Assembly (NCBI GenBank): GCA_025839675.1
Contig: CP104013.1
Coordinates: 850,736 to 870,735 of the forward strand
DNA: 20,000 nt
Origin: Candidatus Lokiarchaeum ossiferum
GTDB lineage: Archaea; Asgardarchaeota; Lokiarchaeia; Sigyniarchaeales; Promethearchaeaceae
Reading direction: 5' to 3'
Shown here: piece after piece, positions 3,001 through 20,000 of the stretch
How positions within the stretch are numbered: position 1 is the first letter of the stretch
Layout of the letters: each line of letters starts with the position of its first letter
Position numbers and translations under genes: made by a program
The notes under the pieces: model-generated
What the model was told of the DNA's origin: nothing
Database searches by the model: none
Seen by the model: only the letters and a program-made list of their open reading frames with translations

Positions 3001-3459
3001 GCATAATTGAACCAATTTCGTTCCTTTTGAAAATGCAAAATCATTTTTTTTTTCAACAAGCTCTATTTTTTGAGCCAATATTTCCTTAATTTGCTTTTCA
3101 TCATCGAAATTTCCATCGATTATTGCGGTTTCAAAAGAAATTTGAGGATTGTTGATTAAGCGAAGATATAATTTAATAAACGAATATTGATAAGGTGTAC
3201 GATCAAGCTTAACTACATCAATATGGCCTGATTTCTTATTAAACGCAACAGAATTATGATAAAGATAATAAAAGAACTGATCGTTGCAAATTTCTTTCTT
3301 AAACATGAAATTTGGAGGTGCAATTTTGCACTTGTGCCGAGAAATTGCTTTAAAAGATTGAAAACAAAATGGGCACACTGCACTTAACGAATAATTCTGT
3401 GTTATTGACGCATTTATTTCAGATATTCGGACCCCCCCCGAATTTACAAATTCTGTCAT
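1..3459 (-). CDS. Giant multi-zinc-finger repeat protein, 3' truncated by window edge (start ATG at 3459; >=1153 codons); 7 CP[FY]C-x9-HxC modules and 3 C-x2-C-x5-C-x14-C motifs
   Basis: I read the complement codon by codon. Lines of 60 nt are in phase with this frame, and no tta/cta/tca occurs in phase from 3459 to 1. Translation starts MTEFVNSGGVRISEINASITQNYSLSAVCPFCFQSFKAISRHKCKIAPPNF... and ends ...EEDLLSTILS at the edge. The supplied ORF track omits it because it has no stop in the window. Confidence 0.93.
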   Translation of the reverse strand, partial: MTEFVNSGGVRISEINASITQNYSLSAVCPFCFQSFKAISRHKCKIAPPNFMFKKEICNDQFFYYLYHNSVAFNKKSGHIDVVKLDRTPYQYSFIKLYLRLINNPQISFETAIIDGNFDDEKQIKEILAQKIELVEKKNDFAFSKGTKLVQLCPYCGLKYRRLSSHKCNDNPFFTFQCRIHPDEFFDLVYKSSGIWDPRGFLNLYRFDLKRYRTNFLQAIKSLEETADPSVEVLEKLLVLPDEKVTSEPHKKTEMEKIEDEISSNLKPSSHKNSTKTSLSDKSRRNSKSFQKISDLKQICPFCFESFNSLYDHECDKKPPDIKFTLNLGEDYEFFRRLYREIGALNKYGKIDFNKFSHNKYNRLFTKYFQPPYLEEEKFKDYKQRILIERHKVAEEQKRLLEAKKRKNLQLQEKRAQKQKEDERQTLLKLQQLNQICPFCYKSTTNLVNHTCAKLPPDFSYSALLSQVTFFKDLYKNSNGLNRHGHIDQYRLNRRKYLQMFIRIHNRLQKSEDPNITLEYNETLDNPVVYDLTGYYSSLKQKVGKIEKIIEEKGIDVEKTTVPQICPYCYTLHECLFGHSCDHIPSGFKFDIQLFSAKFFEKIYQKIGSLSSKGILNFFIFDRSEYSSLFSYEYSQFLSGSGNKQSNDLEIVSRRTSEEINVLVEGVTEELPSRVPKEIFVEQKLNILDSLKVKNYRVKQICPYCYISEEDLSLHKCSKLPEDVPETFQFDIRACFSDFFLYLYYSINAWQRKGFVDENKLNRTEYTPLFFQLYNKLITQENPSLKETFESIYDDELAEQIAQKEIKSEFDDLSEGSEQITPIKAKKKHYKFKHICPYCFQITDDLFAHDCQNLPSEIEEGFQFTEIPYADDFFESLYSQTSALNRFGKLDQYRLNRSKYTTLFLSEYNKKQEKSALEAKNSTIGDKIELKSENSIIEELNIEVDDEYSDMDLLELLSRDIDIGSDSQPTVKSSPKIMHESSDGMPLCFSCKNMVDCPKGLDSSQMESCMKCDEYDTMSGSSSGEADSEEESGMPLCFSCSNMIDCPRGIDSDQMETIFSCKEFRDMNAPEEIPEEKPPLCFSCSNMVNCPRGIDSAQMENIFDCKYYQDMNSNTPSPNITTESSSKSSSETDFSQNIDETSSEEDLLSTILS

Positions 3460-3697
3460 AGATCAATTAAAGTAAAGGTTTTTCGTGAGCAATAAATACA
3501 TTCATTTCTATTCCAGATACTTTTTTTTCTAATAATTCTAGGAATTTTTTTTCTAATAACCACAGTTATTGTGAAGATTTTGGAGCTTTCCTAAAAATTT
3601 TTACAATGAAAATTCCGATCTAACCACTTATGTCTTCAATAAAAACAATTTGAGAAAAATCAAAATGAACTATTATTCTTAAAAACACATTAGTAAT

Positions 3698-5704
3698 TTA
3701 GAGGAACAACTTTCCATCAGAATATATCTCACTAACAGTGACTATATTTTTTAAATCATCGTATTGATAAAGAATTATTAAATCCCCATGCTCTATATGG
3801 GATACAATACCTTTTAAGACCGCTTGAGATATATACCAAGGATCAGCTTTGATTTTGCACTCGGGATAGTTTGTACATCGATGAAAAATTTTTCGAGTGG
3901 TGACAATTTTGCTCATTTCGGCCTCACAGGAACTGCAAATTACTTTCAATTGTCCTCGATCTTGCTCCCAACGATTCATTATTTCTTTAAGTAAATCTTG
4001 TTTTTCTTCATTTGTAATTTTAATTTGAGCTTCTTCATGGATTGAAATGTCAATATTCTCCAGATCTGCAAGATTCTGAAGATCTTCTTCTGCTTTATTT
4101 GGGATAATTTCTTCAGTGCGCTTTTTCTGTCGTTTAAATAATCGAAACCTATGGCGTTTTTTTTCAAGTTTCTTTTGAATTTCTTTTTCCAATTCTTCTT
4201 CAATTTCTTTTTGGATTGCATTTTCCCGATCTTCTCGATTCGTTTCTGTTTCTTTAAAAGCATGGCATTGAAAGACTTGTTCCATTTGTTCAGAATTTAA
4301 ATTAAGAGGACAATTATCTATATGGGTGCAAATCCCACAAATTGAAATATCAGATGGAACTATCGAAGATTTATATGAAGTTGTAGAAAAATTCATGTTT
4401 TCATATAAATCACAATCAAAAATAGTTTCCATTTGAGATGAATCTACACCTTTTGGACAATCCATCATATGTGTACAGGAGAAACACCATGGCATCCCAT
4501 CATCAGGGGGTGTTTTTAAGCCTATTTTTTCCTGAGTTGACAGAGCTTTAGCGGTTTTTGCAGGTAACCCGGTGAGATCATAATCTCGAGACATCATATC
4601 TAGAACATCCATATTGGACAAATCTTGATTATCCAGCTGTGAAAGATCCATGGTGAGATCAAGATCTTCTTCATCCAAGCCATATAATGAATCGTGGAGT
4701 TTCTGCAACTTGAAATTATAAAATTGAAAGAATTCAGTCGAATAAGTCGACTGATTAATTTTTATTAAGTCAGGAGTACCATTTGGAGTAGTGATGCGCA
4801 ATTTTCGATATAAATCTTCGAAAAACAATTCTTCATTCAAAGCAGATTCAAAAGAAAACTCAGAAGGCATTTTTTCACATTTGTGATCTCTTAAAGAATG
4901 AATTACTTGCAAGCAATAGGGACATAAGACTTTTGAGGAAACAAAATTCTTCAGAGTGTCCTTTTTAGCCTTTTCAAGGATTTCCTTTTCGAATTTTTCA
5001 AAACGGGATTTCTTGTGGGATGGAGTGGAATAATTTTTCTCCATTCGAGCTTTTTCTAATGAAGGCCCTTCCATCTCCATCATACGATCATAATAAGTGA
5101 AAAATAACAACCGATAAGCCGCAGTATTCAATTTATAAAGATCCACATTCTTTGAAGAACTCCAAGCATCAAGCTTTTTATAGAGAAATATGAAGAAATC
5201 GTTCGTGCATATTTTTTCTTGAAAATGGAAATCGGGAGATAACTCCTCGGGAAGGGAAGCACAAACATGTTCAGATAAACTCGGAACACCTTCATAACAA
5301 TATGGGCAGATCTGTTTTATAAAAATAGAAGGAGGAACTGATGAATTACGAGTAACAGAACTAGTTTCAGTTTTAGCAGGATTTTTGATAATCGGATCTG
5401 TAATTTTAAAAGAAGTTTCAATAGAAGCATCTATTTCTTTTTGATATGCCCGAAGAAATGCAATTTGGTACTTCACAGGATGAAGTTTATAAATATCAAA
5501 AGTTCCTTGATCTGATAATGCATCAGATTCTTTATATATATGCTTGAAAAATGAAGCATCATCGATTTTTTTGGAAAACTGAAAATTTGGAGGAAGATCA
5601 AGGCATTGGTGCCCATAAAGAGAAAGAAAAGATTTAAAGCAAAAGGGACAAATTTGACGGTATTTTTTTAATTTTGATTCTTTTGACTCTTCATTTTTAT
5701 CCAT
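3698..5704 (-). CDS. Multi-zinc-finger repeat protein, paralogue of the 1..3459 gene: 3 CP[FY]C-x9-HxC modules, 2 C-x2-C-x5-C-x14-C motifs, and a C-terminal topoisomerase-like zinc ribbon
   Basis: 668-aa ORF. Contains CPFCFKSFLSLYGHQC, CPYCYEGVPSLSEHVC, CPYCLQVIHSLRDHKC, CFSCTHMMDCPKGVDSSQMETIFDC, CGICTHIDNCPLNLNSEQMEQVFQC and CSSC...CTNYPEC. Confidence 0.93.
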   Translation of the reverse strand: MDKNEESKESKLKKYRQICPFCFKSFLSLYGHQCLDLPPNFQFSKKIDDASFFKHIYKESDALSDQGTFDIYKLHPVKYQIAFLRAYQKEIDASIETSFKITDPIIKNPAKTETSSVTRNSSVPPSIFIKQICPYCYEGVPSLSEHVCASLPEELSPDFHFQEKICTNDFFIFLYKKLDAWSSSKNVDLYKLNTAAYRLLFFTYYDRMMEMEGPSLEKARMEKNYSTPSHKKSRFEKFEKEILEKAKKDTLKNFVSSKVLCPYCLQVIHSLRDHKCEKMPSEFSFESALNEELFFEDLYRKLRITTPNGTPDLIKINQSTYSTEFFQFYNFKLQKLHDSLYGLDEEDLDLTMDLSQLDNQDLSNMDVLDMMSRDYDLTGLPAKTAKALSTQEKIGLKTPPDDGMPWCFSCTHMMDCPKGVDSSQMETIFDCDLYENMNFSTTSYKSSIVPSDISICGICTHIDNCPLNLNSEQMEQVFQCHAFKETETNREDRENAIQKEIEEELEKEIQKKLEKKRHRFRLFKRQKKRTEEIIPNKAEEDLQNLADLENIDISIHEEAQIKITNEEKQDLLKEIMNRWEQDRGQLKVICSSCEAEMSKIVTTRKIFHRCTNYPECKIKADPWYISQAVLKGIVSHIEHGDLIILYQYDDLKNIVTVSEIYSDGKLFL
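3857..3937 (-). other. Zinc-ribbon motif (CSSCEAEMSKIVTTRKIFHRCTNYPEC), similar to topoisomerase C-terminal zinc repeats
   Basis: Pattern CxxC...F..CxNYPxC near the C-terminus of the 3698..5704 product. Confidence 0.6.
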
Positions 5705-5922
5705 AATTAAAAATTCCTTTGATCAAACGACTTTTCAGTTTCATATTTTTGAAAAAAACCAGTTCTAATTAAATAATTGAAACTCTTAATCTATATTTCT
5801 CTGTTTCTAATTATAAAAAAATGGGTTTATAAAAATAATTCTTAAAGGTAAACTTTCTTCTCATTATTATATTTTAGGAAAAATAAAATTACTTGGTTAA
5901 AATGATGGAAAAAGAAAAGGGA

Positions 5923-6041
5923 GTTTCTCAGTTTGAGGTTTCGCAATATTCGAGATATCACTACTATCCACAACGCATCCGGCCTTAACTTCAGTGTTCG
6001 GAATGGGTACTGGTGTTATTCCGGACCTATGACCGAGAAAC
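5923..6041 (-). rRNA. 5S ribosomal RNA, copy 1
   Basis: The minus strand contains AACACCAGTACCCATTCCGAACACTGAAGTTAAG, the conserved 5S core. Helix I pairs: 5' GTTTCTCGGT with 3' ACTGAGAAAC. Length is 119 nt. Confidence 0.93.
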
Positions 6042-6062
6042 AATATAGATAGTGATATAAGC

Positions 6063-6198: not shown

Positions 6199-6666
6199 TT
6201 GAGCATAGGACTTATTTTAATTATCATCGTGTCGGTTATTGCAGGAGGATACTTTATATTACTTATAATAATTCAGTTGATAAGTAAACGCCCAAATAAT
6301 TTAGGAATTTCAGGAGGAAGATTACAAGCGTGTCCTGATATTCCTAATTGCGTGTGTAGTTATAGCAAAGAAAAAAATTCTAAAATAGAGCCATATTCAT
6401 TTTCAAAATCAATTAAAGAACAAAATTCTATTTTGATTGAAATAATCCAGAAATATCCAAGAACTAGAATAATCAAAAATGAAATAAATTATGTTTATGC
6501 AGAATTTCGTTCCCTGGCGTGGCGTTTTATAGACGATGTGGAGTTTTTTCTGGATGAAACTGCCAAATGCATCCATTTTCGCTCTGCATCTAGAATTGGG
6601 ACAAATGATTTCGGAATGAATCGAAAACGGATGGAAGATATAAGACAATTGTTGAAGGAATCTTAG
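6199..6666 (+). CDS. DUF1499-like membrane-anchored protein (TTG start)
   Basis: N-terminal hydrophobic segment, then PNCVCSY...YAEFRSLAWRFIDDVEFFLDETAKCIHFRSASRIGTNDFGMNRKRMEDIR, the DUF1499 pattern. An in-frame TGA at 6181 leaves TTG at 6199 as the likely start, with AGGTGG at 6187-6192 upstream. Confidence 0.8.
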   Translation: MSIGLILIIIVSVIAGGYFILLIIIQLISKRPNNLGISGGRLQACPDIPNCVCSYSKEKNSKIEPYSFSKSIKEQNSILIEIIQKYPRTRIIKNEINYVYAEFRSLAWRFIDDVEFFLDETAKCIHFRSASRIGTNDFGMNRKRMEDIRQLLKES

Positions 6667-6842
6667 GGGTATTGAGGCAGAAATTATTGATAATTGGAAT
6701 GTAAAGTAAGAGATTTACCAATGATCATCTTTCTCTTCTTTTTTTTAGTTAATTTGAAAAATAATAGAGCGTTTTTTTTTTGAGAAACACTAGACCCAAT
6801 ATAAAATTAGCATTACTGGTAATTGGATAAAAAGAAAAGGGA

Positions 6843-6961
6843 GTTTCTCAGTTTGAGGTTTCGCAATATTCGAGATATCACTACTATCCACAACGCATCC
6901 GGCCTTAACTTCAGTGTTCGGAATGGGTACTGGTGTTATTCCGGACCTATGACCGAGAAAC
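6843..6961 (-). rRNA. 5S ribosomal RNA, copy 2
   Basis: The 119-nt sequence is identical to copy 1, including the helix I strands and conserved core. Confidence 0.93.
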
Positions 6962-6982
6962 AATTTAGATAGTGATATAAGC

Positions 6983-7076: not shown

Positions 7077-7814
7077 TTATAATCGCATCGAATAAGGAAT
7101 TAGGGCCCGTCGCATTATTTTACTATAAGAATAAAGCACAGAACGCATAGATTTTACAAGACTAAGGATTAATTCTCCTTTAATGCTAGTATAATAGTAT
7201 TTCAACAAAATCATGTCTGCTTTGTGATCATGTTCCTTAAGGTTTGTATTTATGATGGTTTTTATCTCGGATAACCGTTCTTCCCTAATATCTTCATCAA
7301 TCAAATCTATTTTATGGAGAAATACATTAAATTGAGCTTTTGGTGCAACCAATGATTTCGAGTTTAATGCTTCTATTAGATCTTCCAAAATTTGATCCTT
7401 AAATTTATCAAACTGACTGATATCCATTACAAAGATGATAGAATCAGATTCACCAAAAGCTTGCTCTTGATCTAACCCAAGCCAACGTTCTATTTCTTGA
7501 CCCGCAGAATCTGCAACCCCTGCTGAAACATCCAACCAATTATAGGTATAATTTTCAATTCCTCGAGTTGGTTCCAAAGGATCATCAATCAAGGTTTGTG
7601 GACTTGAGTCTTCGAAAAACACACTCCGTATAGTAGATTTTCCTGCTGCGGGGGGACCAATGAACAATATTCGCCTGATCGATTCATCTTCATTTGCAAT
7701 TCCGAGCATTCGCATTAAAAAAGCATCGGTAGGCTCCCCTTCTTCCTTATTGGCATCAATTAATTCAGCCACTTTTTTCGAGACTTCAATTGAGACCTTT
7801 TCTTCTTCTGTCAT
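7077..7814 (-). CDS. Rag/Gtr-like (Ras-superfamily) small GTPase with about 45-aa N-terminal extension
   Basis: G1 GPPAAGKST, TRGIE switch region, G3 DSAGQE, G4 HKID. HKxD, followed here by LIDEDIREER, resembles RagA HKMDLVQEDQR. Confidence 0.82.
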   Translation of the reverse strand: MTEEEKVSIEVSKKVAELIDANKEEGEPTDAFLMRMLGIANEDESIRRILFIGPPAAGKSTIRSVFFEDSSPQTLIDDPLEPTRGIENYTYNWLDVSAGVADSAGQEIERWLGLDQEQAFGESDSIIFVMDISQFDKFKDQILEDLIEALNSKSLVAPKAQFNVFLHKIDLIDEDIREERLSEIKTIINTNLKEHDHKADMILLKYYYTSIKGELILSLVKSMRSVLYSYSKIMRRALIPYSMRL

Positions 7815-8763: not shown

Positions 8764-9529
8764 TTACCGTAGGAGATTCATTCCTGGTTCTATGCCCGTC
8801 GGAGCGACTTTCGACACTTTCATCATTGCGACACTAGAAATTAAAACGATCATCACATTATCATTTCCAGCAATTTCGTGCGTTGTTGCATCAAGCAACA
8901 CAAAAAATCGCACAATTTCACCAGCATCTAAAATAGTGTTGGAGTGTACTTCATCATAGAATGCCATGCCATATGTATTATTTATGGCTGCACTATTCCA
9001 AAAATACGCTTCATCATTTAGAGCAGAATTATATGATAATCTTGACTCATTTAGCGAACCAATGAACACAGAAACTTCAATGGCAGATTCTGACAGATCA
9101 ACTTCACCCGTACCTAAGACTAAACGCATATTCCATACAAGCCCTTCGAGTTTACTATTTCCATCAGCGTCGTAACCTACGACGAGTCCGCCCTCTACTA
9201 TCATGAATTTTTCCACAGATTTATTTTTGTGTGTGAATAAAATTTTGCATGGCAGATGAAGCTTGCTGCAGTGCCTGTTGCCCCGTTGCACTGAGTTGTT
9301 GTTGTAATGTTGATCCCATAGTGAGGATTACAAATGCAACTCCAGCTGCAGTGATTATAAAGGCAATCAAGATGATTGCGGCGGTCATCCCTTCATTTGC
9401 TTTTCGACCTTTTTTGGTACGGCGACGTCTGATCCGGGCGTTGGTTGCTTTATCGGCATTAATCTTGCGGATTTCCTGACGAGAATCGCAAGAACTTGAT
9501 TGCAATTTGCTGCTCATAACAGATTTCAC
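8764..9529 (-). CDS. Archaellin/type IV pilin-like structural protein, apparently frameshifted: N-terminal part 9221..9529, C-terminal part 8764..~9228 in another frame
   Basis: N-terminal frame has KKGRKANEG|MTAAIILIAFIITAAGVAFVILTMGSTLQQQLSATGQQALQQASSAMQNFIHTQK-stop, a class III signal peptide-like sequence plus the archaellin alpha-helix. The adjacent frame continues NKSVEKFMIVEGGLVVGYDADGNSKLEGLVWNMRLVLGTGEVDLSESAIEVSVF. Removing one A from the A5 run at 9224-9228 joins them. Confidence 0.75.
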
Positions 9530-9667
9530 CTGTTTAATTTTTGGCCACTTGAGTCATCTTACAACTAGCGTAGGATTTGTCCAGTTCCAAATTTTATTCA
9601 ATTCTTGAGACAAAGGTTAATACTTAAAGACAATTATTAGAAAAATTCTAAAAAAAATGATTTCATC

Positions 9668-11449
9668 TTAGAGAATTGCAACACCAAAACCACCAATCAA
9701 CTCACCAGCTACTTGACTGATCACAATAATCTCTAAACCCGCAATAATATAATATTGAGACAAGTATTTGGTAACTTTCATCCAAGTACCTCGTTGAGGA
9801 ATAATTATGGCCAGACAAGCGTAAATTGGCATAGTTAAATAATAGATGGTGAAATACAAATCAGTAAAAAATGCAGGAGGTGGTTTACCTAACTGTAAAT
9901 TCATCCCTTGGACATCTTGCAGAGCACCCATTGTGACATTCAATAGGAAAAGAACATCTTTCATAAAGATCATAATCCCAATATTAATAATAGTGAGCAT
10001 CAGTAAAGTCCCTTTGAAGACCCCAATTACCTGCTGCCTATCCCGACGGAGCTTCAATATTTTTTCAACATTGGTTGAGATAAATTTGGATATTATTTCG
10101 GTATTACCTCCTATATCTAAACTAGAAGTAAAAATTCGAAGAAAACGATCAATAATACTGCTGGATGTGCTATCAGAAAACCATTGCCACGCAATAATCG
10201 GATCAATCCCAAATTTTGATTGGGTGTATAATAATTTAATATCAGTAGTCAAAGGACCAAATTGTTCCCGAGAGATGATGTTAACAGAATCAAAAATGCT
10301 TCCTCCTAATAATGCTGTTGTAGCGCCCAAAGTGCGAATAAAAACGGGGAAATTAGCATCCCGTCGTTTTATAATATCTTCAAATTTTTCAGCAACATAA
10401 CCAGGATAAAACATGGAGATTCCAAATATGATCATGAAAACTGGGAGAGAGATCACAGAATTACCGTCAGCATCTTTTAGAAAGAAAGTAATGAATGCCA
10501 AAATTGGCATGAAAACAAAAACACAGATTAAAAAGGAATAAAGAACTTTTTCGTACTCAGCGGTTTTCCTTTGAATATTCACCAAACCATCTTTGGGGGA
10601 GATCGCATAAAAGGCAACCATAAGAGCAATATAAACAAGTTCTATTACCCCCAAAATGAGAAATAAATTCCGAGTATTGGCAGCTTCATCACTTCCAAAA
10701 AGAAACATCATCAAAAGAAAGGTAATAGATATAAAACTCAATGAAGTGGAAAGTGCGGTAAACATATCGTTAAGTACCTCAAGGGATTTCAACTTGCGAG
10801 TATAATCCGAAATATAACCGTTTAAAACCGATTGCTGTTCTTTTAAGAAATAATCTTCTAAATTTTCACCCGCATCCAAAGCTTGGGAAAAACGGGAGAG
10901 AAAATCACCAAATCTGGAACTTGCTGTCGTAGCACTTACTTTTTTAATGCTATCTAAATATCCAAGATTCCACTCTTTCGCCATGGTACGAATTCGTTTT
11001 ACCTCTAAAGCAATTAGTCCAAAAGATTTTTCCCGACGACTTACATTCTCAAAAAGTTGATCTCGACTAGCTTTTGAGGTAGAAATACCACCCATATAGG
11101 TAACAAGCATAGGAAGAGCAGTATCAATTTGTTCTTGACGTAAAGAGCGTTTAAAATAGGGAAAGATAAAAACTATAATGAATCCAAGAAAAAAACATGA
11201 AATTGATAAAGGAAAAATTATCCCAGAAATCATAGGGCTCATTTCCAATAAAATTCCGATGATTATTCCGGACCCTAGACCACCCACTGTAATAGGGAGA
11301 AGAATTTTAAATAAATATTCACCTATGGATTTCTGTATTCCTGCTTGGATTAGTGTTTGTTGGAACGAATCAACAAGTTTCCGATAAACATCTTGCATTG
11401 TTTCTTTGAAACTTTGTTTTTTATTCTCTTCGTCTCGTTTTTCCATCAT
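9668..11449 (-). CDS. arlJ: Archaellum polytopic membrane platform protein
   Basis: 593-aa multi-TM T2SF/TadC-like protein (FPYFKRSLRQEQIDTALPMLVTYMGGIS..., GARTLGATTALLGGSIFD-like segment) immediately downstream of the arlI-like gene. Confidence 0.85.
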   Translation of the reverse strand: MMEKRDEENKKQSFKETMQDVYRKLVDSFQQTLIQAGIQKSIGEYLFKILLPITVGGLGSGIIIGILLEMSPMISGIIFPLSISCFFLGFIIVFIFPYFKRSLRQEQIDTALPMLVTYMGGISTSKASRDQLFENVSRREKSFGLIALEVKRIRTMAKEWNLGYLDSIKKVSATTASSRFGDFLSRFSQALDAGENLEDYFLKEQQSVLNGYISDYTRKLKSLEVLNDMFTALSTSLSFISITFLLMMFLFGSDEAANTRNLFLILGVIELVYIALMVAFYAISPKDGLVNIQRKTAEYEKVLYSFLICVFVFMPILAFITFFLKDADGNSVISLPVFMIIFGISMFYPGYVAEKFEDIIKRRDANFPVFIRTLGATTALLGGSIFDSVNIISREQFGPLTTDIKLLYTQSKFGIDPIIAWQWFSDSTSSSIIDRFLRIFTSSLDIGGNTEIISKFISTNVEKILKLRRDRQQVIGVFKGTLLMLTIINIGIMIFMKDVLFLLNVTMGALQDVQGMNLQLGKPPPAFFTDLYFTIYYLTMPIYACLAIIIPQRGTWMKVTKYLSQYYIIAGLEIIVISQVAGELIGGFGVAIL

Positions 11450-11485
11450 ATATCAGTTTGATTTGGTTATTTGACCATGATTAAC

Positions 11486-13273
11486 TTAGAGTGCGGCATC
11501 GTCTTCTTCCTTCATACGCCGTTTCATTGTATCTACTACTTCTTGAGGTAATTTCTTTTTGTTTTTATAAGTGGTTAATATTCGAAAGATAGTATGGTAA
11601 TTTTGAATTCCAAGTTCTCCAAACGCTTCTAGGATATGTCGTTTCGTGCGTAATTCGTCATAGAGCATTTTAATATCTTTTCGTTTTATTCCCCGTTTGA
11701 CTGCGATTTTTTGTTCAAATACATAGGATTGATTTCTAAATATATGAGTATCATCCCCTGCATCCCATGCAAAAAGCTCAACATACCTAAATTTATCTTT
11801 TTTTGGAAGATAATCAACTAATTCATTGCAAGAAATGCAACGACGTAATAATTTTCCCGTTTTTCCTTGAACTGCCATTTGTATATAGACAAGATCAAGT
11901 AAAGCAATAAATGCAGGAGGGACATTAATAGGCTTCCCAGTCATACGATTCACAAATGCTCGTACACTACCAGCGTGGAAAGTAGCAACCATCGGGTGAC
12001 CAGTTTGCATTGCTTGAAAAGCCATGTTTCCTTCTTCACCACGAATTTCTCCAATAATTATTAAATTTGGACGTTGTCTGAGAGCTGCCTTTACAAGAAG
12101 AAAAATATCCACGGGATTTCCAGCTGAAGCAGGACGGGTGACTTCTCGAGTCCAATTTTGGTGAGGCACTTTTACTTCTGGAGTATCTTCAATACTTACG
12201 ATTTTTGCATTAGGTCCAATAAAAGTGAGTAAGGCATTCAAAGAGGTCGTTTTTCCAGATGCAGTTTCACCAACAACCATCATAGAATGATGAGATTCCA
12301 GGGTCATCCATAAATATGCACATAATTGGGAACTAAGAGTGCCCCATCCAATAAGATTGACTACACTGATAACATCTTCACTAAACTTACGGATTGTGAA
12401 ATTTGATCCATGCATGGACACATCTGTTCCATAGACGATATTAATACGAGAGCCATCGGGTAAAGCAGCATCAACCACAGGATTGGAGTGGCTCGCAGGA
12501 CGTCCAGAACGTTCGCTAAGATATAGGGCAAACAAATCAAGTTCTTCATCCGTTTCAAATATAATGGTACTTTCAAGAGATTCAAAGATTTTATGTTCTA
12601 CAAAGAGTGGACCTTTCCCATTACAAGTTATATCTTCAATATATGGATCATTAATTAGTGGTTGGAGTTTTCCTAAACCAATCTTATTACGAATAAAATA
12701 ATAACGGACCCGTTCAGCGACGACGGGATCGAGCTTCAATTTGGAACTCTGTTTCAATTTGGACAGCAATTTCAAAATTGGATTTGAAGAATCTGTTTTT
12801 TCATAGGAAGTTCCTGATCCTCCACCACCGATGGAAGTATCAATTATACGAGCAGCAAACTTGTCATATAATTTAATATGATCTTCTTTATTCTCTGGAA
12901 TATCATTGTACTTAATCAAAGAGGTTAAGGTGGACATAATTTTTTCTTGAGCATCTGTAGTAGCTTGATTTAATGTAGGTTCTATTGAAGAATATAAGAT
13001 TCTGGAAGGCCCGGGATAAATATGTATAAATACAGGTCCATCTGCAGGGTATAAAACATTGGGATATTCCAATTTTTTATGCTTGCGCTCTAATTTTTCA
13101 ATATATACAGGCACCCCAATTTCTTCATTGTAGTTCTGAATTAAATAGTCCAGTACATGAGGGTATTTGGCAGTAATTTGCCTTAATACAACATTTTGAT
13201 TAATTTTGGCTTCTGCTTGGGCCATTTCTTGCGTGGACATTGTTTCTGTCATGTTTAATTCAGCATTCAACAA
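11486..13273 (-). CDS. arlI: Archaellum assembly/motor ATPase
   Basis: Type II/IV secretion ATPase: Walker A VVGETASGKTTSLNALL, IVSIEDTPEVKVPHQNWTREVTR, Walker B-like NLIIIGEIRGEEGNMAFQAMQTGHPMVATFHA. Confidence 0.92.
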   Translation of the reverse strand: MLNAELNMTETMSTQEMAQAEAKINQNVVLRQITAKYPHVLDYLIQNYNEEIGVPVYIEKLERKHKKLEYPNVLYPADGPVFIHIYPGPSRILYSSIEPTLNQATTDAQEKIMSTLTSLIKYNDIPENKEDHIKLYDKFAARIIDTSIGGGGSGTSYEKTDSSNPILKLLSKLKQSSKLKLDPVVAERVRYYFIRNKIGLGKLQPLINDPYIEDITCNGKGPLFVEHKIFESLESTIIFETDEELDLFALYLSERSGRPASHSNPVVDAALPDGSRINIVYGTDVSMHGSNFTIRKFSEDVISVVNLIGWGTLSSQLCAYLWMTLESHHSMMVVGETASGKTTSLNALLTFIGPNAKIVSIEDTPEVKVPHQNWTREVTRPASAGNPVDIFLLVKAALRQRPNLIIIGEIRGEEGNMAFQAMQTGHPMVATFHAGSVRAFVNRMTGKPINVPPAFIALLDLVYIQMAVQGKTGKLLRRCISCNELVDYLPKKDKFRYVELFAWDAGDDTHIFRNQSYVFEQKIAVKRGIKRKDIKMLYDELRTKRHILEAFGELGIQNYHTIFRILTTYKNKKKLPQEVVDTMKRRMKEEDDAAL

Positions 13274-13415
13274 TTCTCATGGAATTCATATTGAAGATGT
13301 AGAAATTGTTTCTAACCATCCAAGTAACCCTTTTTACTATATATTTGGGTTTTTAGAAATTTCTTCACAAAAAAATCAATTTTTTTATCTTAATTGAAAG
13401 AAAAAATGAAATAAT

Positions 13416-14177
13416 TTAAGCCGCAGAAATAACTGAAACCGCAATTCCAAAGGCAGAATCAATATTAAAGACAATTAATTGAGATATTTCATCTTGTGCT
13501 AACCATTTTAAAACTGAACACGCTTTGAAGGCCGTTCCATCTTCTTCTCGCTGTTCAAATCGAAGAATTAAGTCACATAAATTCATAAAATTTAATTCGA
13601 TATAGTCATATAACTCGGGGAAGTAAGTTGGAATAGTAATAATGACTGTTTTTCCACCAATGGTTAATCTTTTACACAATTCAAAGAAAAACATTACTTG
13701 TTTAGGATCAAAATTCTTTCCGACAAAATAAGTCAGGGAATCAATAATAATCACTTCGCTTTCAATGTTGGATATTAGATCAATTAACTTAAACATTACA
13801 TCAGGAGTACGTAGAACTTTTCCTGATTGAGACACAACAGGAATAATGTCAAACTGTCCAGTTAAAAAGAAATCTTCTGCTCTTTCCCAAGATAGAGAGA
13901 ACATATTTTGCACTAAACCTTTGACTGTCATCTCACTTGTGATATAGGAAACGGTCTTTCTACATCGCAAAGCACCATAAGCAATTTGTTGACACCATAC
14001 AGACTTCCCTGCCCCCATATCCCCAGCAAATACTGCAAGAGATCCACATTTTACTCCACCCCCCAGATTTCGATCCAATTCTTCATTCGTTGTGAGGAAA
14101 TATTCGGAGAAATCTTTTTCTGGCCCTTTTTTTTCTTCTTTATCTGCAAATGATTCCATAATTCTGTTTCCTCGCAT
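13416..14177 (-). CDS. arlH: Archaellum KaiC/RecA-like ATPase ArlH
   Basis: LGGGVKCGSLAVFAGDMGAGKSVWCQQIAYGAL (Walker A) and SEVIIIDSLTYF (Walker B). Gene order next to arlI/arlJ. Confidence 0.88.
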   Translation of the reverse strand: MRGNRIMESFADKEEKKGPEKDFSEYFLTTNEELDRNLGGGVKCGSLAVFAGDMGAGKSVWCQQIAYGALRCRKTVSYITSEMTVKGLVQNMFSLSWERAEDFFLTGQFDIIPVVSQSGKVLRTPDVMFKLIDLISNIESEVIIIDSLTYFVGKNFDPKQVMFFFELCKRLTIGGKTVIITIPTYFPELYDYIELNFMNLCDLILRFEQREEDGTAFKACSVLKWLAQDEISQLIVFNIDSAFGIAVSVISAA

Positions 14178-14192
14178 TAATTCGTAATGATC

Positions 14193-14729
14193 TTATGATA
14201 GGGTGTTATAAATAAATGAATCTCCGACCCCATTAGGGGTTGAAATTCGGTAATAATAGTATTGCTCCGCTATTGTTACATTAAACGTAATTGTGATATT
14301 TAAAAGCTCATGAGGATCCCAATAAGTGGGATTGTGGGACAAATCACCTAACATAGTAAACGACCAATAACATCCAGCACTGATAATTGCAGCACCTAAA
14401 TTCGAACTGGGAATCCATCTATCATAGACATATGGCCCACAATCAAGAACTTGAGTGACATTTGTAAAAACATCCATAGAGTCCAATTGATAAATAATTT
14501 CTGTTCCAATATTTTCTATCACTAAATTAATAGCCATTTCAGAAGGATCGCGCGAAGCATTAATTAATTGAATGCTTGTATGGATGCGAGAAAATTCCCG
14601 ATCGTAATTGTTTTCCTGAGCTTCTGTTATCAATTCATTAGAACTTTGAAAAGCTGAATAAAGCATAGATCCCACTAACAGAGTACAAAGAAATAACATT
14701 CCAAAGGAAATTGATACTGATTGTCCCAT
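14193..14729 (-). CDS. arlF: ArlF-like archaellum stator protein
   Basis: Single N-terminal hydrophobic helix (MGQSVSISFGMLFLCTLLVGSMLYSAF) and a beta-rich extracytoplasmic domain (AINLVIENIGTEIIYQLDSMDVF). Position next to arlH. Confidence 0.65.
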   Translation of the reverse strand: MGQSVSISFGMLFLCTLLVGSMLYSAFQSSNELITEAQENNYDREFSRIHTSIQLINASRDPSEMAINLVIENIGTEIIYQLDSMDVFTNVTQVLDCGPYVYDRWIPSSNLGAAIISAGCYWSFTMLGDLSHNPTYWDPHELLNITITFNVTIAEQYYYYRISTPNGVGDSFIYNTLS

Positions 14730-14764
14730 TTTTTTTCAAGTTTTTTTTATGTTCAAAGAAAATT

Positions 14765-15244
14765 TCAAATTGAAAATTGATAAATTTCACTAATTCCTGA
14801 TATAGCGATAACTATTTGATGAGAACCAGAATTAATTGACTCACCATCAGGAAAATACATGCGAACTATAATTGTCTCGAGTGGATCCCAAATATTGTTT
14901 CCATTGTCGTTCAAGATAGTTGCATTCCATCGAAAAAGACTTGTGTCCGCACTGTCAAGGTAATAATAGTCCCCATCTAAGAAGACATCCATTTCAGAGA
15001 AGGACCCCACAGATGCATCCCCAAGATTCTTCACATAACCATATATTGTTGAATTCCCCGCTTCTGTGTTTCCTATAGCAAGTACTTCAAAATCAGTATT
15101 AATTTGATTAGCAAAATTTTGACCGCTGTTGTTAATTGATGCACCTATTGCAGCCGCTACAGTAAAAGCCGCTGCGATGACAACTATAGTTGTTACAATC
15201 GACGCTGTAGACATTATTCCAGTTGATACTGCATTATCACTCAT
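14765..15244 (-). CDS. arlG: ArlG-like archaellum stator protein
   Basis: N-terminal helix IVTTIVVIAAAFTVAAAIGASINNSGQNFANQINTDFEVLAIGN, resembling the ArlG N-terminus, plus a beta-rich domain. First gene of the minus-strand cluster. Confidence 0.65.
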   Translation of the reverse strand: MSDNAVSTGIMSTASIVTTIVVIAAAFTVAAAIGASINNSGQNFANQINTDFEVLAIGNTEAGNSTIYGYVKNLGDASVGSFSEMDVFLDGDYYYLDSADTSLFRWNATILNDNGNNIWDPLETIIVRMYFPDGESINSGSHQIVIAISGISEIYQFSI

Positions 15245-15409: not shown

Positions 15410-16819
15410 ATGACAGAAGCAAAAGATTTATTATTAGTTTGGATCGGTCAAGCGGGAGTAAATATTGCCGAAAGATTTTGGGCATATGCATATGAAACGC
15501 TAGGTATTCCAGTACCAATCAAAACGGGAGATATTCCCGCAGACATTGATAAGATGCTCGATAAGAAGTTAGAAATGACAGAATTCTATACAGAATACGA
15601 AATTGAAGAAGCACGTCGGATGTTCTTCTACAATCTGCTAGATGATAAAGATCGAGCTAGTAATAAACAAAAAAAATATATCCCGCGATCTATTTTTATT
15701 GATTTGGAAGCCCAACCAGTTCGGAGTTTTCATGAACGAAATTCCCATATTTTTCCAAAGGATGATTTTATCTACAATACATTCGGATCTCATTCAATGT
15801 GGGCACGGGCCAAGCGTATTGGTACCAATTTAAAACCATACATCCTTGATCGAATTCAATCTCTTATTCAAATGCGTGCGATTCAAAACTTAGAAGGCAT
15901 AATAATAATTCATGCAACGGGAGGTGGAGCAGGATCTGGACTTCTTGATAGTGTATTTGAAGTTCTGCAAGATAAGTTCCCAAAAGTCCCTACCCTCACT
16001 TTTTCAATTTTTCCAAGTCGAAAACTCAGTGGAAATGTTATTGAAGCATATAATACAATTTATGCAGCAAACAGTTTATTAGCAAATGCAAGTGCAACAG
16101 TGTTACTTGACAATGATAAAATAATTAATTTGGTAAAAGAAAAATATCAGATTGAATCACCCACTTATGAAGATATTAATATGATAATCTCTCGGTTAAT
16201 ATTCAGTGTGATTATGCAAATTGCAATGCCTGGTGCCATCATTCGGGCGGATTTCAATAAATTATTCACAAATTTAGTACCCTACAAATACATGAAATTT
16301 TTGTTAGCAGGTATTGCTCCCTTTAAATTTGATGAATTTTCTCAAAATTCTACAGAAGATCTAGTGAAAGAGCTCACTGATGAGCAGAATTATATGGCCG
16401 ATGTAAACTTTGGTACAGGTAAATATGTATCTACCATGTATTTCTTCATGGGAAAACTAGGTCCTGAAGTGAAAACTCCTCTCCGAATTGCCAAAGAAAA
16501 TATGGATTTTATGCCATGGATTCCGACTGGTATGTTCATAGGAATTACTCCACGAGAAAAAATGACCCTTGATGGGATGCCTCTTTTACGTCAAGGAATT
16601 GTTTTAGCAAATAATTCGGCAATGCGGTTTATATTTCAAAGAACTATGGCACAATTTCAAGTGATGTTTAATAAAGGTGCATTTATGCACCATTTTAAGA
16701 AAGAAAACATAGATGCGGAAAAAGAATTGAAACAAGCCGCAGCCAATATTACACGAATGATGAAATTTTATGAGATTGCAGAAAAATCTACAACTAAAAA
16801 ACGAACTGTTAAATCCTAA
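15410..16819 (+). CDS. Tubulin-family GTPase (artubulin/eukaryotic-tubulin-like)
   Basis: WIGQAGVNIAE (T1), PRSIFIDLEAQPV (T3 region), IIIIHATGGGAGSG (tubulin signature at 15920..15940), FSIFPSRKLSGNVIEAYN, LLDNDKI, PTYEDINMIISRL, ADFNKLFTNLVPYKYMKFLLAGIAPF (T7/H8), and a C-terminal FMHHFKKENIDAEKELKQAAANI helix. Length is 469 aa. Confidence 0.93.
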   Translation: MTEAKDLLLVWIGQAGVNIAERFWAYAYETLGIPVPIKTGDIPADIDKMLDKKLEMTEFYTEYEIEEARRMFFYNLLDDKDRASNKQKKYIPRSIFIDLEAQPVRSFHERNSHIFPKDDFIYNTFGSHSMWARAKRIGTNLKPYILDRIQSLIQMRAIQNLEGIIIIHATGGGAGSGLLDSVFEVLQDKFPKVPTLTFSIFPSRKLSGNVIEAYNTIYAANSLLANASATVLLDNDKIINLVKEKYQIESPTYEDINMIISRLIFSVIMQIAMPGAIIRADFNKLFTNLVPYKYMKFLLAGIAPFKFDEFSQNSTEDLVKELTDEQNYMADVNFGTGKYVSTMYFFMGKLGPEVKTPLRIAKENMDFMPWIPTGMFIGITPREKMTLDGMPLLRQGIVLANNSAMRFIFQRTMAQFQVMFNKGAFMHHFKKENIDAEKELKQAAANITRMMKFYEIAEKSTTKKRTVKS

Positions 16820-18028: not shown

Positions 18029-18796
18029 GTGAATCATATGTCTGTACAAATCGAGGATATTTCTAATACCTATATTATGACAAAATCAGAAACTTTGTTT
18101 AAGATTTTGCAAGCGTTGAGCTTTAAGGGTGGTAGTTCAAGCACATCTTCATTAAAAATTGCTGTAATGCTGGATGATAACATTATCGCCGCAGCTTTGA
18201 AGGGTGGAGAACTTTTAAAATTCATTGAAAAAGATGAAGATGAATACGCCCTCACAGCTGAAGGTGAACGAATTTTAGAAGTCAGTAAAAAAGAACAACA
18301 AGATATGGTGGCTAAAAGCTATTATGCTATTGAGGGCTATCGAGATATTGTTTTTCGCATGAAAATGGCAAGCAATCAGATGCAAATGAAAGAACTTGAA
18401 AAAGCATTCTATATATTGGAAAAAGATATGCGTGATGAACTAAGAAAAGTAATTGTTGATAGTTTTATAGATTTTGGTCTTTATGCAAATGTTTTAGAAA
18501 CTAATAATAATGCAGCCAATCCAGGAGTTTTATTAACCGCTAATGGAGTTTCGCAATTAGATGCAGTATTAGCAGCGAAAAAACGCAAACGTAAGGGAGG
18601 TACTGCCCCCACAGCAGCCAGTTCTGGTGGAGGCATTGTAAGTGATTTATCTTGTCAATCTTGTGGAAAAGCGATTATGCCAGACTTTGCCATGTGCCCC
18701 TATTGCGGTACTGCGTTAAAACGTTCCTGTAGCAATTGCGGTAAGGAATTACAACCAGGCTGGAAAATGTGTCCCTTCTGTGGAACCGGACAATAA
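18029..18796 (+). CDS. Winged-helix-like protein with C-terminal double zinc ribbon
   Basis: TLFKILQALSFKGG...KIAVMLDDNIIAAALKGGELLKFIEKDEDEYALTAEGERILE, then CQSCGKAIMPDFAMCPYCGTALKRSCSNCGKELQPGWKMCPFCG. The start may be ATG at 18038. Confidence 0.75.
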   Translation: MNHMSVQIEDISNTYIMTKSETLFKILQALSFKGGSSSTSSLKIAVMLDDNIIAAALKGGELLKFIEKDEDEYALTAEGERILEVSKKEQQDMVAKSYYAIEGYRDIVFRMKMASNQMQMKELEKAFYILEKDMRDELRKVIVDSFIDFGLYANVLETNNNAANPGVLLTANGVSQLDAVLAAKKRKRKGGTAPTAASSGGGIVSDLSCQSCGKAIMPDFAMCPYCGTALKRSCSNCGKELQPGWKMCPFCGTGQ

Positions 18797-18944
18797 TCAA
18801 TCACATCCTAAGGAATGTTTTGTCTTTATTCTTTTTTCTCTTTTATTAACAGGTCTTGCATTTATTTCCAAAAACAATTCTAAAATCCATATATATATAT
18901 CTTCCAAACATCTTATTAAGTAGAGGTTTTAGTAGAGGCTTTCC

Positions 18945-20000
18945 ATGAGTATTGGCGCAGATGATAAAGATGATCTTTTGTTTATCTTCATTGGTCAACG
19001 AGGACTTCAAATCGGTAGTATCTTCTTTAATTTAATTAAGGACGATTATAAAGGAAAGCGATATGATATTTTGGATTTTTTTTCCAAGGTATTTTTTATT
19101 TGTGAAACCGAAAGTCAATTCCGAGAAATTGGAACCATGATAGAAGGATATGTTCCCGAAGAAAATGTGCTTTTAATGGGAGAATTAAATACAAGCGGAG
19201 ATTTATGGTCAAATATTGAAGAAAATGACGATATATTCGCAAGTAGAGTTTTTGCTCCATTAATGTACGCTGTTGATCAACTCGCAAAGCCAAATATTCT
19301 TCTTTTTTATGACCTTTCAAATGGAAAACAAGCAGGAATTTGTGATTATTTATTGATCAATTTTCCTTTAGTAAAACAACAAATGCCAATCTATGTGATT
19401 GCCACAACATCTATCGATGAAGGAGCAGGTGCTTTATCTATTTATTGGAGTATTTTAGGGCTAAACTCGATCATTCAAGGATCCACAGCAAAAGCTTGTA
19501 TTCTATTAGATTATGAAGCAATTGGAAATTCAATTTTTCTAAAACGAATTAAGAAAATGGATGATATTGATTTTGAGAGTTATAACTATGTTGTAGCCCA
19601 ATTAATTTACTCCATCACATATTATGATAGAGAACCATATTCAAATGCTGTGCCATTTTGTCAAATGATTGATAAACTCGTGATTTTCAATGACATGAAA
19701 TTCATCATTCCCTTCATGACAATGCCTCGTCGTGAATTGATCGAAGATGAAACGTTTTCGGGCTATTTAAACGAGTTGGTAAATGATTGCAACCTATTTT
19801 CAATGAATTATAAACGCCCCATAGATGAAAATGGCGTTGAACAAGATTATCCTAAAATTAGTCTCGCTAATGCATTTATTGCCTTTGGGGAAAAACAAGA
19901 TACACACTATCTAAACTTAATCCGGAATAATTTACCTCCGATCATGGAATATTTGCCTGGCACTAAAACGTTTTATACATATCCCCGCGGGGACCCTTTC
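18945..20000 (+). CDS. Divergent tubulin-like paralogue, 3' truncated by window edge (352 codons in window)
   Basis: Open frame from ATG 18945 to 20000 without stop, not in the ORF track. DLLFIFIGQRGLQIGSSIFF matches DLLLVWIGQAGVNIAERFW of the upstream tubulin. Collinear matches continue at ACILLDYEAI/TVLLDNDKI and DKLVIFNDMKFIIPFMTMP/TNLVPYKYMKFLLAGIAP. Confidence 0.75.
   Translation, partial: MSIGADDKDDLLFIFIGQRGLQIGSIFFNLIKDDYKGKRYDILDFFSKVFFICETESQFREIGTMIEGYVPEENVLLMGELNTSGDLWSNIEENDDIFASRVFAPLMYAVDQLAKPNILLFYDLSNGKQAGICDYLLINFPLVKQQMPIYVIATTSIDEGAGALSIYWSILGLNSIIQGSTAKACILLDYEAIGNSIFLKRIKKMDDIDFESYNYVVAQLIYSITYYDREPYSNAVPFCQMIDKLVIFNDMKFIIPFMTMPRRELIEDETFSGYLNELVNDCNLFSMNYKRPIDENGVEQDYPKISLANAFIAFGEKQDTHYLNLIRNNLPPIMEYLPGTKTFYTYPRGDPF

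Follow-up and report, generated by a model that had tools for sequence, protein, structure and literature searches.

Archaeal microtubules were first shown in Candidatus Lokiarchaeum ossiferum, and the stretch of its genome analyzed here (20,000 nucleotides of contig CP104013.1, positions 850,736 to 870,735 of the forward strand, hereafter the window; G+C about 33%) carries towards its right end an intact tubulin gene, a gene for a winged-helix/zinc-ribbon protein and the beginning of a gene that we called psT, a label coined in this analysis for a pseudo-tubulin gene and its product. The psT frame opens with an ATG at position 18945 of the + strand and runs for 352 codons with no stop up to position 20000, where the window edge cuts the open reading frame (ORF). 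This part was identical at 352 of 352 residues to the N-terminus of a L. ossiferum "hypothetical protein" (P0017, WP_371805016.1/XEO75707.1; cluster mate, UYP44420.1 = NEF87_000705). The complete gene, carried on the 6.27-Mb chromosome CP163304.1, comprises 1977 nt and encodes 658 aa; helices H11 and H12, an acidic stretch, a disordered linker and a C-terminal helix are encoded beyond the window. The original prediction, made from the letters of the window, had described psT as a second tubulin-like protein with a degenerate nucleotide-binding loop, and the strings that it quoted were all located in psT: GQRGLQIG at aa 17-24, ILLFYDLSNGKQAGICDYLL at aa 118-137, LLDYEAI at aa 187-193 and DKLVIFNDMKFIIPFMTMP at aa 243-261.

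BLASTP aligned psT with the tubulin encoded from position 15410 at E = 3e-5 and 23% identity, with a second, longer collinear alignment, and hhalign comparison of the psT family with the family of this neighbor, an AtubC-type tubulin, gave a probability of 95.3% and E = 2.1e-8 over 379 columns (residues 8-423 against 5-460). The collinearity of the two proteins on which the original prediction was built is thus better than chance. A profile built from four psT family members matched 160 PDB sequences at E <= 10, and the best 60 of the 160 were all tubulins; among the matches listed were BtubB (7e-6), beta-tubulins (about 1e-4), Odin tubulin (1.4e-3) and gamma-tubulin (4.6e-3), the matching blocks being collinear in the GTPase domain and in H11-H12. 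When a profile of the psT core was run with HMMER against 1.84 billion representative proteins, 30 matches were obtained at E <= 1e-3. Five of them were the psT family itself and three were other degenerate tubulin-like proteins, while the rest resembled canonical tubulins: PF00091 was highly significant in 7 of the 8 that were scanned with Pfam, and the T1/T4 pattern was present in most of the others.

The fold was modeled with AlphaFold2 (AF2) from psT family sequences only, so that canonical tubulins could not bias the result. The model of the window fragment had an overall predicted local distance difference test score (pLDDT) of 53 and a predicted template modeling score (pTM) of 0.61 and was confident only in a beta-alpha-beta N-terminal domain (residues 10-155); that of full-length psT, made from eight sequences, was confident only for the N-terminal domain and for the C-terminal helix. 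A Foldseek search of the PDB with the model of the window fragment returned tubulins for all of its top 50 matches (E about 1e-9, TM 0.50-0.57, 270-290 columns), with gamma-tubulins among the best. The predicted fold is therefore tubulin-like, and the profile searches likewise matched tubulins, none of them placing psT in another Rossmann family.

The psT core (aa 1-418) and tubulin aligned collinearly over the whole span from strand S1 through helix H12. The tubulin-specific H11/H12 was present in the psT family as 'ENNT...KFD..I....SYLH.LED...YQE', with the match 'ENNTVVRQYFQDLLEKFDILISHHSYLHVLED' visible in the orthologues, and an orthologue segment past the window part, 'ENNTVVRQYFQDLLEKFDILISHHSYLHVLEDLGIT..SF..ALDKLVSIVDAYQESEDLLY', aligned with H11-H12 of tubulins such as beta-tubulin. 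AF2 predicted helices at 361-379 and 393-417, in the same region. Since the H11-H12 region is absent from FtsZ, psT groups with the true tubulins, and we conclude that it is almost certainly a very divergent paralogue of a true tubulin and not of FtsZ.

Comparison of L. ossiferum with the closest metagenomic orthologue (contig L005) gave a nonsynonymous divergence (dN) of 0.032 and a synonymous divergence (dS) of 1.59 for the psT core, that is, a ratio (omega) of 0.02; the omega of the tail was 0.14. Across the same three contigs, orthologues were 80, 73 and 44% identical in the psT core and 65, 61 and 45% identical in AtubC, so that the psT core is conserved at least as strongly as AtubC. Together with a frame that is intact in at least seven orthologues, full-length members measuring 545-737 aa, these values identify psT as a working gene under strong purifying selection and not a decaying one. 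Searches with single sequences or with existing family models were uninformative. Pfam assigned no family to the window fragment, the thresholds of PF00091 and PF03953 not being reached (the orthologue P0002 scored 16.4 bits against PF00091, for a cut-off of 33); phmmer of the single fragment against PDB sequences gave noise only; and NCBIfam yielded nothing meaningful for full psT, its one match (E 0.094) being to an unrelated family and far under the cut-off. These failures are what could be said for psT being a decaying pseudogene, a chance ORF or an unrelated Rossmann-fold enzyme, a view that is hardly credible given the intact frames, the low omega, the conserved synteny described below and the return of tubulins only by profile and fold searches; we consider it effectively refuted by the PDB profile, hhalign, Foldseek and omega.

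The residues facing the nucleotide were compared in a MAFFT L-INS-i alignment of psT with metagenomic tubulins, AtubA, AtubB and AtubC, to which alpha/beta-tubulin was added for numbering only. The alignment agreed with the AF2 secondary structure (S2 = VFFIC, S3 = NVLL, T3 = SGDLWSN). It replaced an earlier hhalign placement of T2/T3, which had put 'ELNTSG' under the tubulin DLE motif. As the original prediction had proposed, the GGGAGSG box was replaced and aligned with S-N-G-K-Q-A-G, and the T7 Lys of the neighboring tubulin aligned with Gln240 of psT. Across the family T4 follows the pattern [ST]-[NS]-G-x-x-A-G, which retains two of the five glycines. In T1 the Gln is variable (Q/H/T/S/A/K/R) and Arg19 is invariant. 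The gamma-phosphate sensor Asn101 of tubulin corresponds to an invariant Asp86, the guanine-binding Asn206 to an invariant Tyr190, and Asp251 of T7 to an invariant Pro237; at position 254, the catalytic/Lys254 position, psT of L. ossiferum has Gln240, a second subclade has Asp and one sequence has His. In addition, psT is shortened relative to tubulin in both of the main lateral-contact elements of microtubules, by about 20 residues in the H1-S2 loop and by 5-7 residues in the M-loop.

Thus, as judged from the alignment, the elements that read the base, the ribose and the phosphates, or that activate hydrolysis in the neighboring subunit, are all replaced in psT. Considering this replacement and the shortened lateral loops, we infer that psT does not bind GTP in the canonical way and does not build microtubule walls. 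The residues that stand in for the GTP contacts are themselves invariant or conserved across the psT family, indicating selection on that face of the protein. It could accordingly be argued that psT is an active nucleotide-binding protein with re-invented motifs that forms filaments of its own, given the strong conservation of G-x-R-G, GDLWSN, S-x-G-x-x-A-G and LDYxAIGN and the two T4 glycines that are kept. We regard this as very unlikely: the guanine readers N206 and N228 and the gamma-phosphate contact N101 are lost, as are most glycines of the phosphate loops and D251 of T7, an Asp occupies the place of the gamma-phosphate sensor, and the catalytic position varies within the family (Q/D/H). 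Taken together, the profile, fold and motif comparisons support the central proposal of the original prediction, that psT is a pseudo-tubulin, a tubulin-fold paralogue with a degenerate nucleotide site.

Table 1. Features of psT and its surroundings (window positions; psT residue numbers; tubulin motifs are those aligned with psT by MAFFT)
Feature	Position	Strand	Remarks
psT, first 352 of 658 codons	18945..20000	+	N-terminal GTPase-like domain, H7/T7 and part of the C-terminal domain
T1 equivalent GQRGLQIG, aa 17-24	18993..19016	+	tubulin GQxGNQ; G-x-R-G in the family
T2 equivalent			tubulin VDLEP; ICETE in psT
T3 equivalent TSGDLWSN, aa 83-90	19191..19214	+	aligned to GAGNNWAK of tubulin
T4 equivalent S-N-G-K-Q-A-G, aa 125-131	19317..19337	+	in place of GGGTGSG (GGGAGSG in the neighboring tubulin)
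T5 equivalent			tubulin SDTVVEPYN; GAGALSIYW in psT
S6/T6/H6 equivalent LLDYEAIGN, aa 187-195	19503..19529	+	aligned to (C)IDNEALYD; DNEA of T6 becomes DYEA
H7 equivalent			tubulin Tyr224 / Asn228; Ser (in this clade) / Val217 in psT
T7 equivalent NAVPFCQ, aa 234-240	19644..19664	+	tubulin N-A-D-L-R-K/E
TATA-like AT-rich element (atatatatatat)	18889..18900	+	45-56 nt 5' of the psT ATG; conserved in L005
Winged-helix/AAA_assoc_C protein with C-terminal double zinc ribbon	18038..18796	+	252 aa from a conserved Met; directly upstream of psT
Intact tubulin, AtubC-type	15410..16819	+	469 aa; Pfam Tubulin + Tubulin_C; GGGAGSG

The tail that follows H12 in full-length psT consists of an acidic stretch (52% Asp/Glu), a disordered linker of about 50-250 aa that varies in length and sequence between orthologues, and a conserved, charged C-terminal helix. 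This helix, of about 75 aa, is composed to 54% of Glu, Lys and Arg, shows a weak heptad pattern, starts with G-x-L-x-W-L and ends with ...ELKELAKMFENL. In the AF2 model, residues 446-582 were disordered and the helix spanned residues 583-657 with a pLDDT of 70-80. Pfam assigned no family to the tail. A core, a variable disordered linker and a conserved C-terminal element were thus found in the arrangement typical of FtsZ and TubZ.

Degenerate tubulins of this kind were also found outside the psT family. P0024, P0025 and P0030 are tail-less metagenomic proteins of 382-399 aa without the T4 glycines, whose Pfam tubulin match is non-significant or marginal and partial. They aligned with psT by hhalign at 3e-12, 2e-13 and 3e-8, respectively, much closer than with AtubA, AtubB or AtubC, and share 'DVW[SN]' and, in one case, 'IDY' with it. 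On the basis of these distant relatives, psT-type degenerate tubulins extend beyond the Lokiarchaeum clade in both age and breadth. Two of the distant cases have a winged-helix protein and a canonical tubulin as neighbors. On a 4.4-kb metagenomic contig (L014), the P0025 gene comes after those of a coiled-coil plus winged-helix protein and of a 138-aa protein. It is oriented divergently to the gene of a canonical tubulin, which carries GGGAGSG and a catalytic Glu in T7; this tubulin scored marginally best to AtubC (1.5e-48), followed by AtubB (5e-47) and AtubA (5e-46).

The intact tubulin in the window was about 30% identical to AtubA and to AtubB and formed a small family of its own. About 55 extra residues are inserted into its H1-S2 loop (aa ~30-87), and its T3 loop is divergent (GSHSMWA). 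AtubA, AtubB, AtubB2 and AtubC have been defined, and Lokiarchaeial AtubC was reported to be encoded within 10 kb of AtubAB (Lowe/Ettema, Sci Adv 2026, PMC13394414). The tubulin at 15410, which lies 9.6 kb from AtubB (L013), fits the AtubC clade of that paper by description, as opposed to accession, and is not an unknown tubulin. Its position at the catalytic site of T7 is occupied by an invariant Lys (RADFNK), as in beta-tubulin and AtubA, so that it would not activate GTP hydrolysis in the subunit below.

The AtubC family was also the closest paralogue of psT by hhalign score (65.8, as against 46.0 for AtubA and 41.0 for AtubB). Such a relationship could mean that psT is an obligate, stoichiometric partner of AtubC in an alpha/beta-like heterodimer, in which it would provide a nucleotide-free 'non-exchangeable site' of a second filament system. 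The T7 Lys of AtubC would suit an obligate non-hydrolyzing interface, considering that beta-tubulin and AtubA, which share it, sit on a non-hydrolyzing site; the divergence rates of psT and AtubC are similar; and P0025, too, adjoins a canonical tubulin closest, if marginally, to AtubC. However, AtubC and psT are not arranged in tandem or overlapping like AtubA/B but are separated by one or two genes, one of them variable and on the opposite strand, the lateral-contact loops of psT are shortened, and its 240-aa tail is unlike a lattice subunit. We therefore consider the heterodimer unlikely.

A recurring gene order was observed around psT: the archaellum operon (- strand), AtubC, a variable small gene, the winged-helix/zinc-ribbon protein, psT, variable genes and AtubB-AtubA (- strand). 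This order was complete in five contigs (L005, L006, L007, L010 and L013), and five shorter contigs held the parts that they reached (L002, L004/L008 and L015 with psT, L011 with a psT fragment, and L012 ending before the psT position). The tandem pair was orthologous to the structurally characterized AtubB (7e-252) and AtubA (2e-247) of L. ossiferum, in which it lies 5.5 kb past the psT stop, outside the window. AtubA and AtubB together form mini-microtubules. The original prediction had proposed that psT and the intact tubulin make up a two-component cytoskeletal system; the neighboring tubulin is indeed conserved beside psT, but the conserved locus extends to the winged-helix/zinc-ribbon protein and to AtubB/AtubA, and the presumed pair is a piece of this larger, partly known cluster. 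In L. ossiferum, the interval between psT and AtubB holds a 1101-aa protein with no Pfam match (L013, 12649-15954, - strand), and elsewhere it holds unrelated genes (a methyltransferase, DUF498, small ORFs), which makes it a variable spot in the cluster.

All related contigs spanning both genes had the winged-helix/zinc-ribbon gene directly 5' of psT and on its strand, with a transposase gene between the two in L010, and the product of the winged-helix/zinc-ribbon gene was conserved at 48-70% identity. Between the stop codon of this gene and the TATA-like element lies a T-rich tract, and a GAGG motif follows the element at 18935-18938; the TATA-like element and GAGG are a possible promoter and ribosome-binding site of psT's own. 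Just 5' of the psT start we also observed a 12-nt tandem duplication, AGTAGAGG(T/C)TTT, at 18919-18942, which contains the GAGG ribosome-binding-like motif and is present as a single copy in the closest orthologous contig, L005.

By analogy with TubR, which links centromere DNA to TubZ, or with a kinetochore-like link to AtubA/B microtubules, psT and the winged-helix/zinc-ribbon protein might form an adaptor between DNA and a filament. The constant position and good conservation of the gene, which encodes a winged helix-turn-helix (wHTH) and a double zinc ribbon, would fit such an adaptor, as would the coiled-coil plus wHTH protein that likewise precedes P0025 and the layout of core, linker and C-terminal element, given that the tails of FtsZ and TubZ bind adaptor proteins. 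By contrast, no centromere-like repeats or iterons, as in TubZRC-type systems, were found between 15000 and 20000, wHTH domains mediate protein-protein contacts too, and a search of PDB sequences with the zinc-ribbon protein returned only zinc-ribbon matches with non-significant E-values, the most similar being RNA-binding or ribosomal proteins. A DNA-to-filament adaptor is thus improbable on present evidence.

The remaining window genes include the archaellum operon, a Gtr1/RagA-type GTPase, a MaoC dehydratase and two 5S rRNA genes. The archaellum operon (8764-15244, - strand; archaellins, FlaJ, FlaI, FlaH and FlaG/F-like proteins) is divergently adjacent to AtubC, and the same arrangement was seen in all related contigs except L009, where a partial operon and two small genes precede AtubC. 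From this conserved adjacency, motility and the tubulin genes may be linked functionally or in their regulation. The Gtr1/RagA-type small GTPase (7077-7814, - strand; Pfam 1.8e-20), a eukaryote-like signature protein, also stands beside the archaellum cluster in L007, L011 and L012. The 5S rRNA genes, which are identical and on the - strand (5923-6040 and 6843-6960), sit in a perfect 136-bp direct repeat (5909-6044 and 6829-6964) flanking a 155-aa ORF (6199-6666), with no 16S or 23S rRNA gene near them. At the left end of the window, a stop-free frame of at least 1154 aa (1-3462, - strand) runs off the edge and is followed by the gene for a 668-aa protein (3698-5704, - strand); zinc-finger-like CPFC/CPYC...H..C modules recur in both proteins, and the one of 668 aa terminates in a topoisomerase-type zinc ribbon.

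Considering these observations together, psT looks, from its sequence, like a tubulin-superfamily pseudo-GTPase with an adaptor-type tail, encoded inside the Asgard microtubule gene cluster. Our tentative proposal for its function, to which we give somewhat less than an even chance, is that psT, as a GTPase-dead subunit, serves the Asgard tubulin system in an accessory or adaptor role; for the explanation as a whole, that is, a divergent tubulin paralogue acting by an accessory or adaptor mechanism, we put the chances at about even and regard it as the best available. In this mechanism, psT would have lost GTP binding and hydrolysis and would form no lattice of its own, but would dock through its tubulin-type longitudinal surface onto the neighboring Asgard tubulins, the partner being AtubC, its closest paralogue and most consistent neighbor, or alternatively AtubA/B. 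The tail would tether the complex to another partner, for which the co-conserved winged-helix/zinc-ribbon protein is the obvious candidate, or to itself, so that psT might serve as an end-binding adaptor, a cap or a nucleator. The original prediction had suggested a capping, nucleating or regulatory partner, which is a plausible role. A more specific version, in which nucleotide-free psT caps or nucleates polymers of AtubA/B (or AtubC) while the tail and the winged-helix/zinc-ribbon protein couple these polymers to DNA or another structure, is rather improbable; if true, it would make psT the first microtubule-associated regulatory subunit of an archaeal microtubule system and a pre-eukaryotic analogue of gamma-tubulin or of a kinetochore-type adaptor.

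Several points weigh against the accessory-subunit proposal. psT may have an unusual ligand or binding mode, and synteny does not tell AtubC from AtubA/B as its partner. The AF2 models were poor past residue 155 (pLDDT < 50), which leaves the C-terminal half of the fold to the sequence alignment and the predicted helices. The family is tiny, with 8 clusters at 90% identity among 5.8 billion clusters and 5 at 50% identity among 1.84 billion representatives. One AtubC-bearing contig, L009, which also carries bacterial-type genes, did not contain the downstream cluster. Finally, neither the psT nor the AtubC locus was found in GTDB representative genomes, which makes co-occurrence statistics weak, and a metagenome scan added a single locus.

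A degenerate tubulin paralogue is not mentioned in PMC13394414, its preprint and supplement, the Nerearchaeum preprint or a 2026 review, Wollweber et al. 2025 (Cell) lying outside this scope, and a literature search for pseudo-tubulin or 'AtubD' returned nothing relevant. Within these sources, the 'not described' of the original prediction holds for the degenerate paralogue. In the published searches, PF00091/COG queries and PSI-BLAST of one iteration (E <= 1e-3 or 1e-10) were employed and long branches were then removed, steps by which psT could have been missed or filtered out; in general, it would probably escape homology searches through PF00091 or stringent PSI-BLAST. With at least three distant metagenomic relatives, psT would form an additional, fifth and cryptic branch of the Asgard tubulin family, from which the origin of eukaryotic tubulins is reconstructed. 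A conserved paralogue that is GTPase-dead by its motifs, has an adaptor-like tail and is encoded between AtubC and AtubB/A is a candidate nucleating, capping or anchoring factor, and the proteins needed for a direct test of such a role are tractable already.

Among known systems, the Asgard tubulins AtubA, AtubB, AtubB2 and AtubC share with psT the organism, the gene cluster and the fold family; they align with it collinearly from S1 to H12, and H11/H12 is conserved. Unlike them, psT lacks GGGTGSG and the GTP-contact residues and falls under the Pfam tubulin thresholds, its H1-S2 and M loops are shortened, and it carries a 240-aa tail that is absent from the Atubs. In FtsZ and TubZ, a disordered linker and a terminal peptide reach FtsA/ZipA/SepF or TubR, and psT resembles them in its three-part layout and in having a wHTH gene next door, as TubR is beside TubZ. 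The core of psT is, however, of the tubulin type and predicted to be GTPase-dead, it ends in a charged helix of about 75 aa instead of a short peptide, and centromere repeats were not found near it. Misato/DML1 and other degenerate eukaryotic tubulin-like proteins are also divergent, with weakened GTPase motifs and non-polymer roles, whereas psT is archaeal, encoded in a cluster and retains the tubulin H11/H12; the Misato Pfam models (Misat_Tub_SegII / Tubulin_3) gave no match at E <= 1 for the window fragment or for full-length P0002 and P0003. The actin-related proteins (Arps) offer, from a different superfamily and as an analogy only, another case of a cytoskeletal fold re-used as a non-polymerizing regulatory subunit. 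Gamma-tubulin, the microtubule nucleator and minus-end cap, is likewise a non-lattice paralogue, and psT would similarly offer one longitudinal face to a polymer; gamma-tubulin differs in its intact GTP site, in having no long tail and in the organization of its ring by separate GCP proteins.

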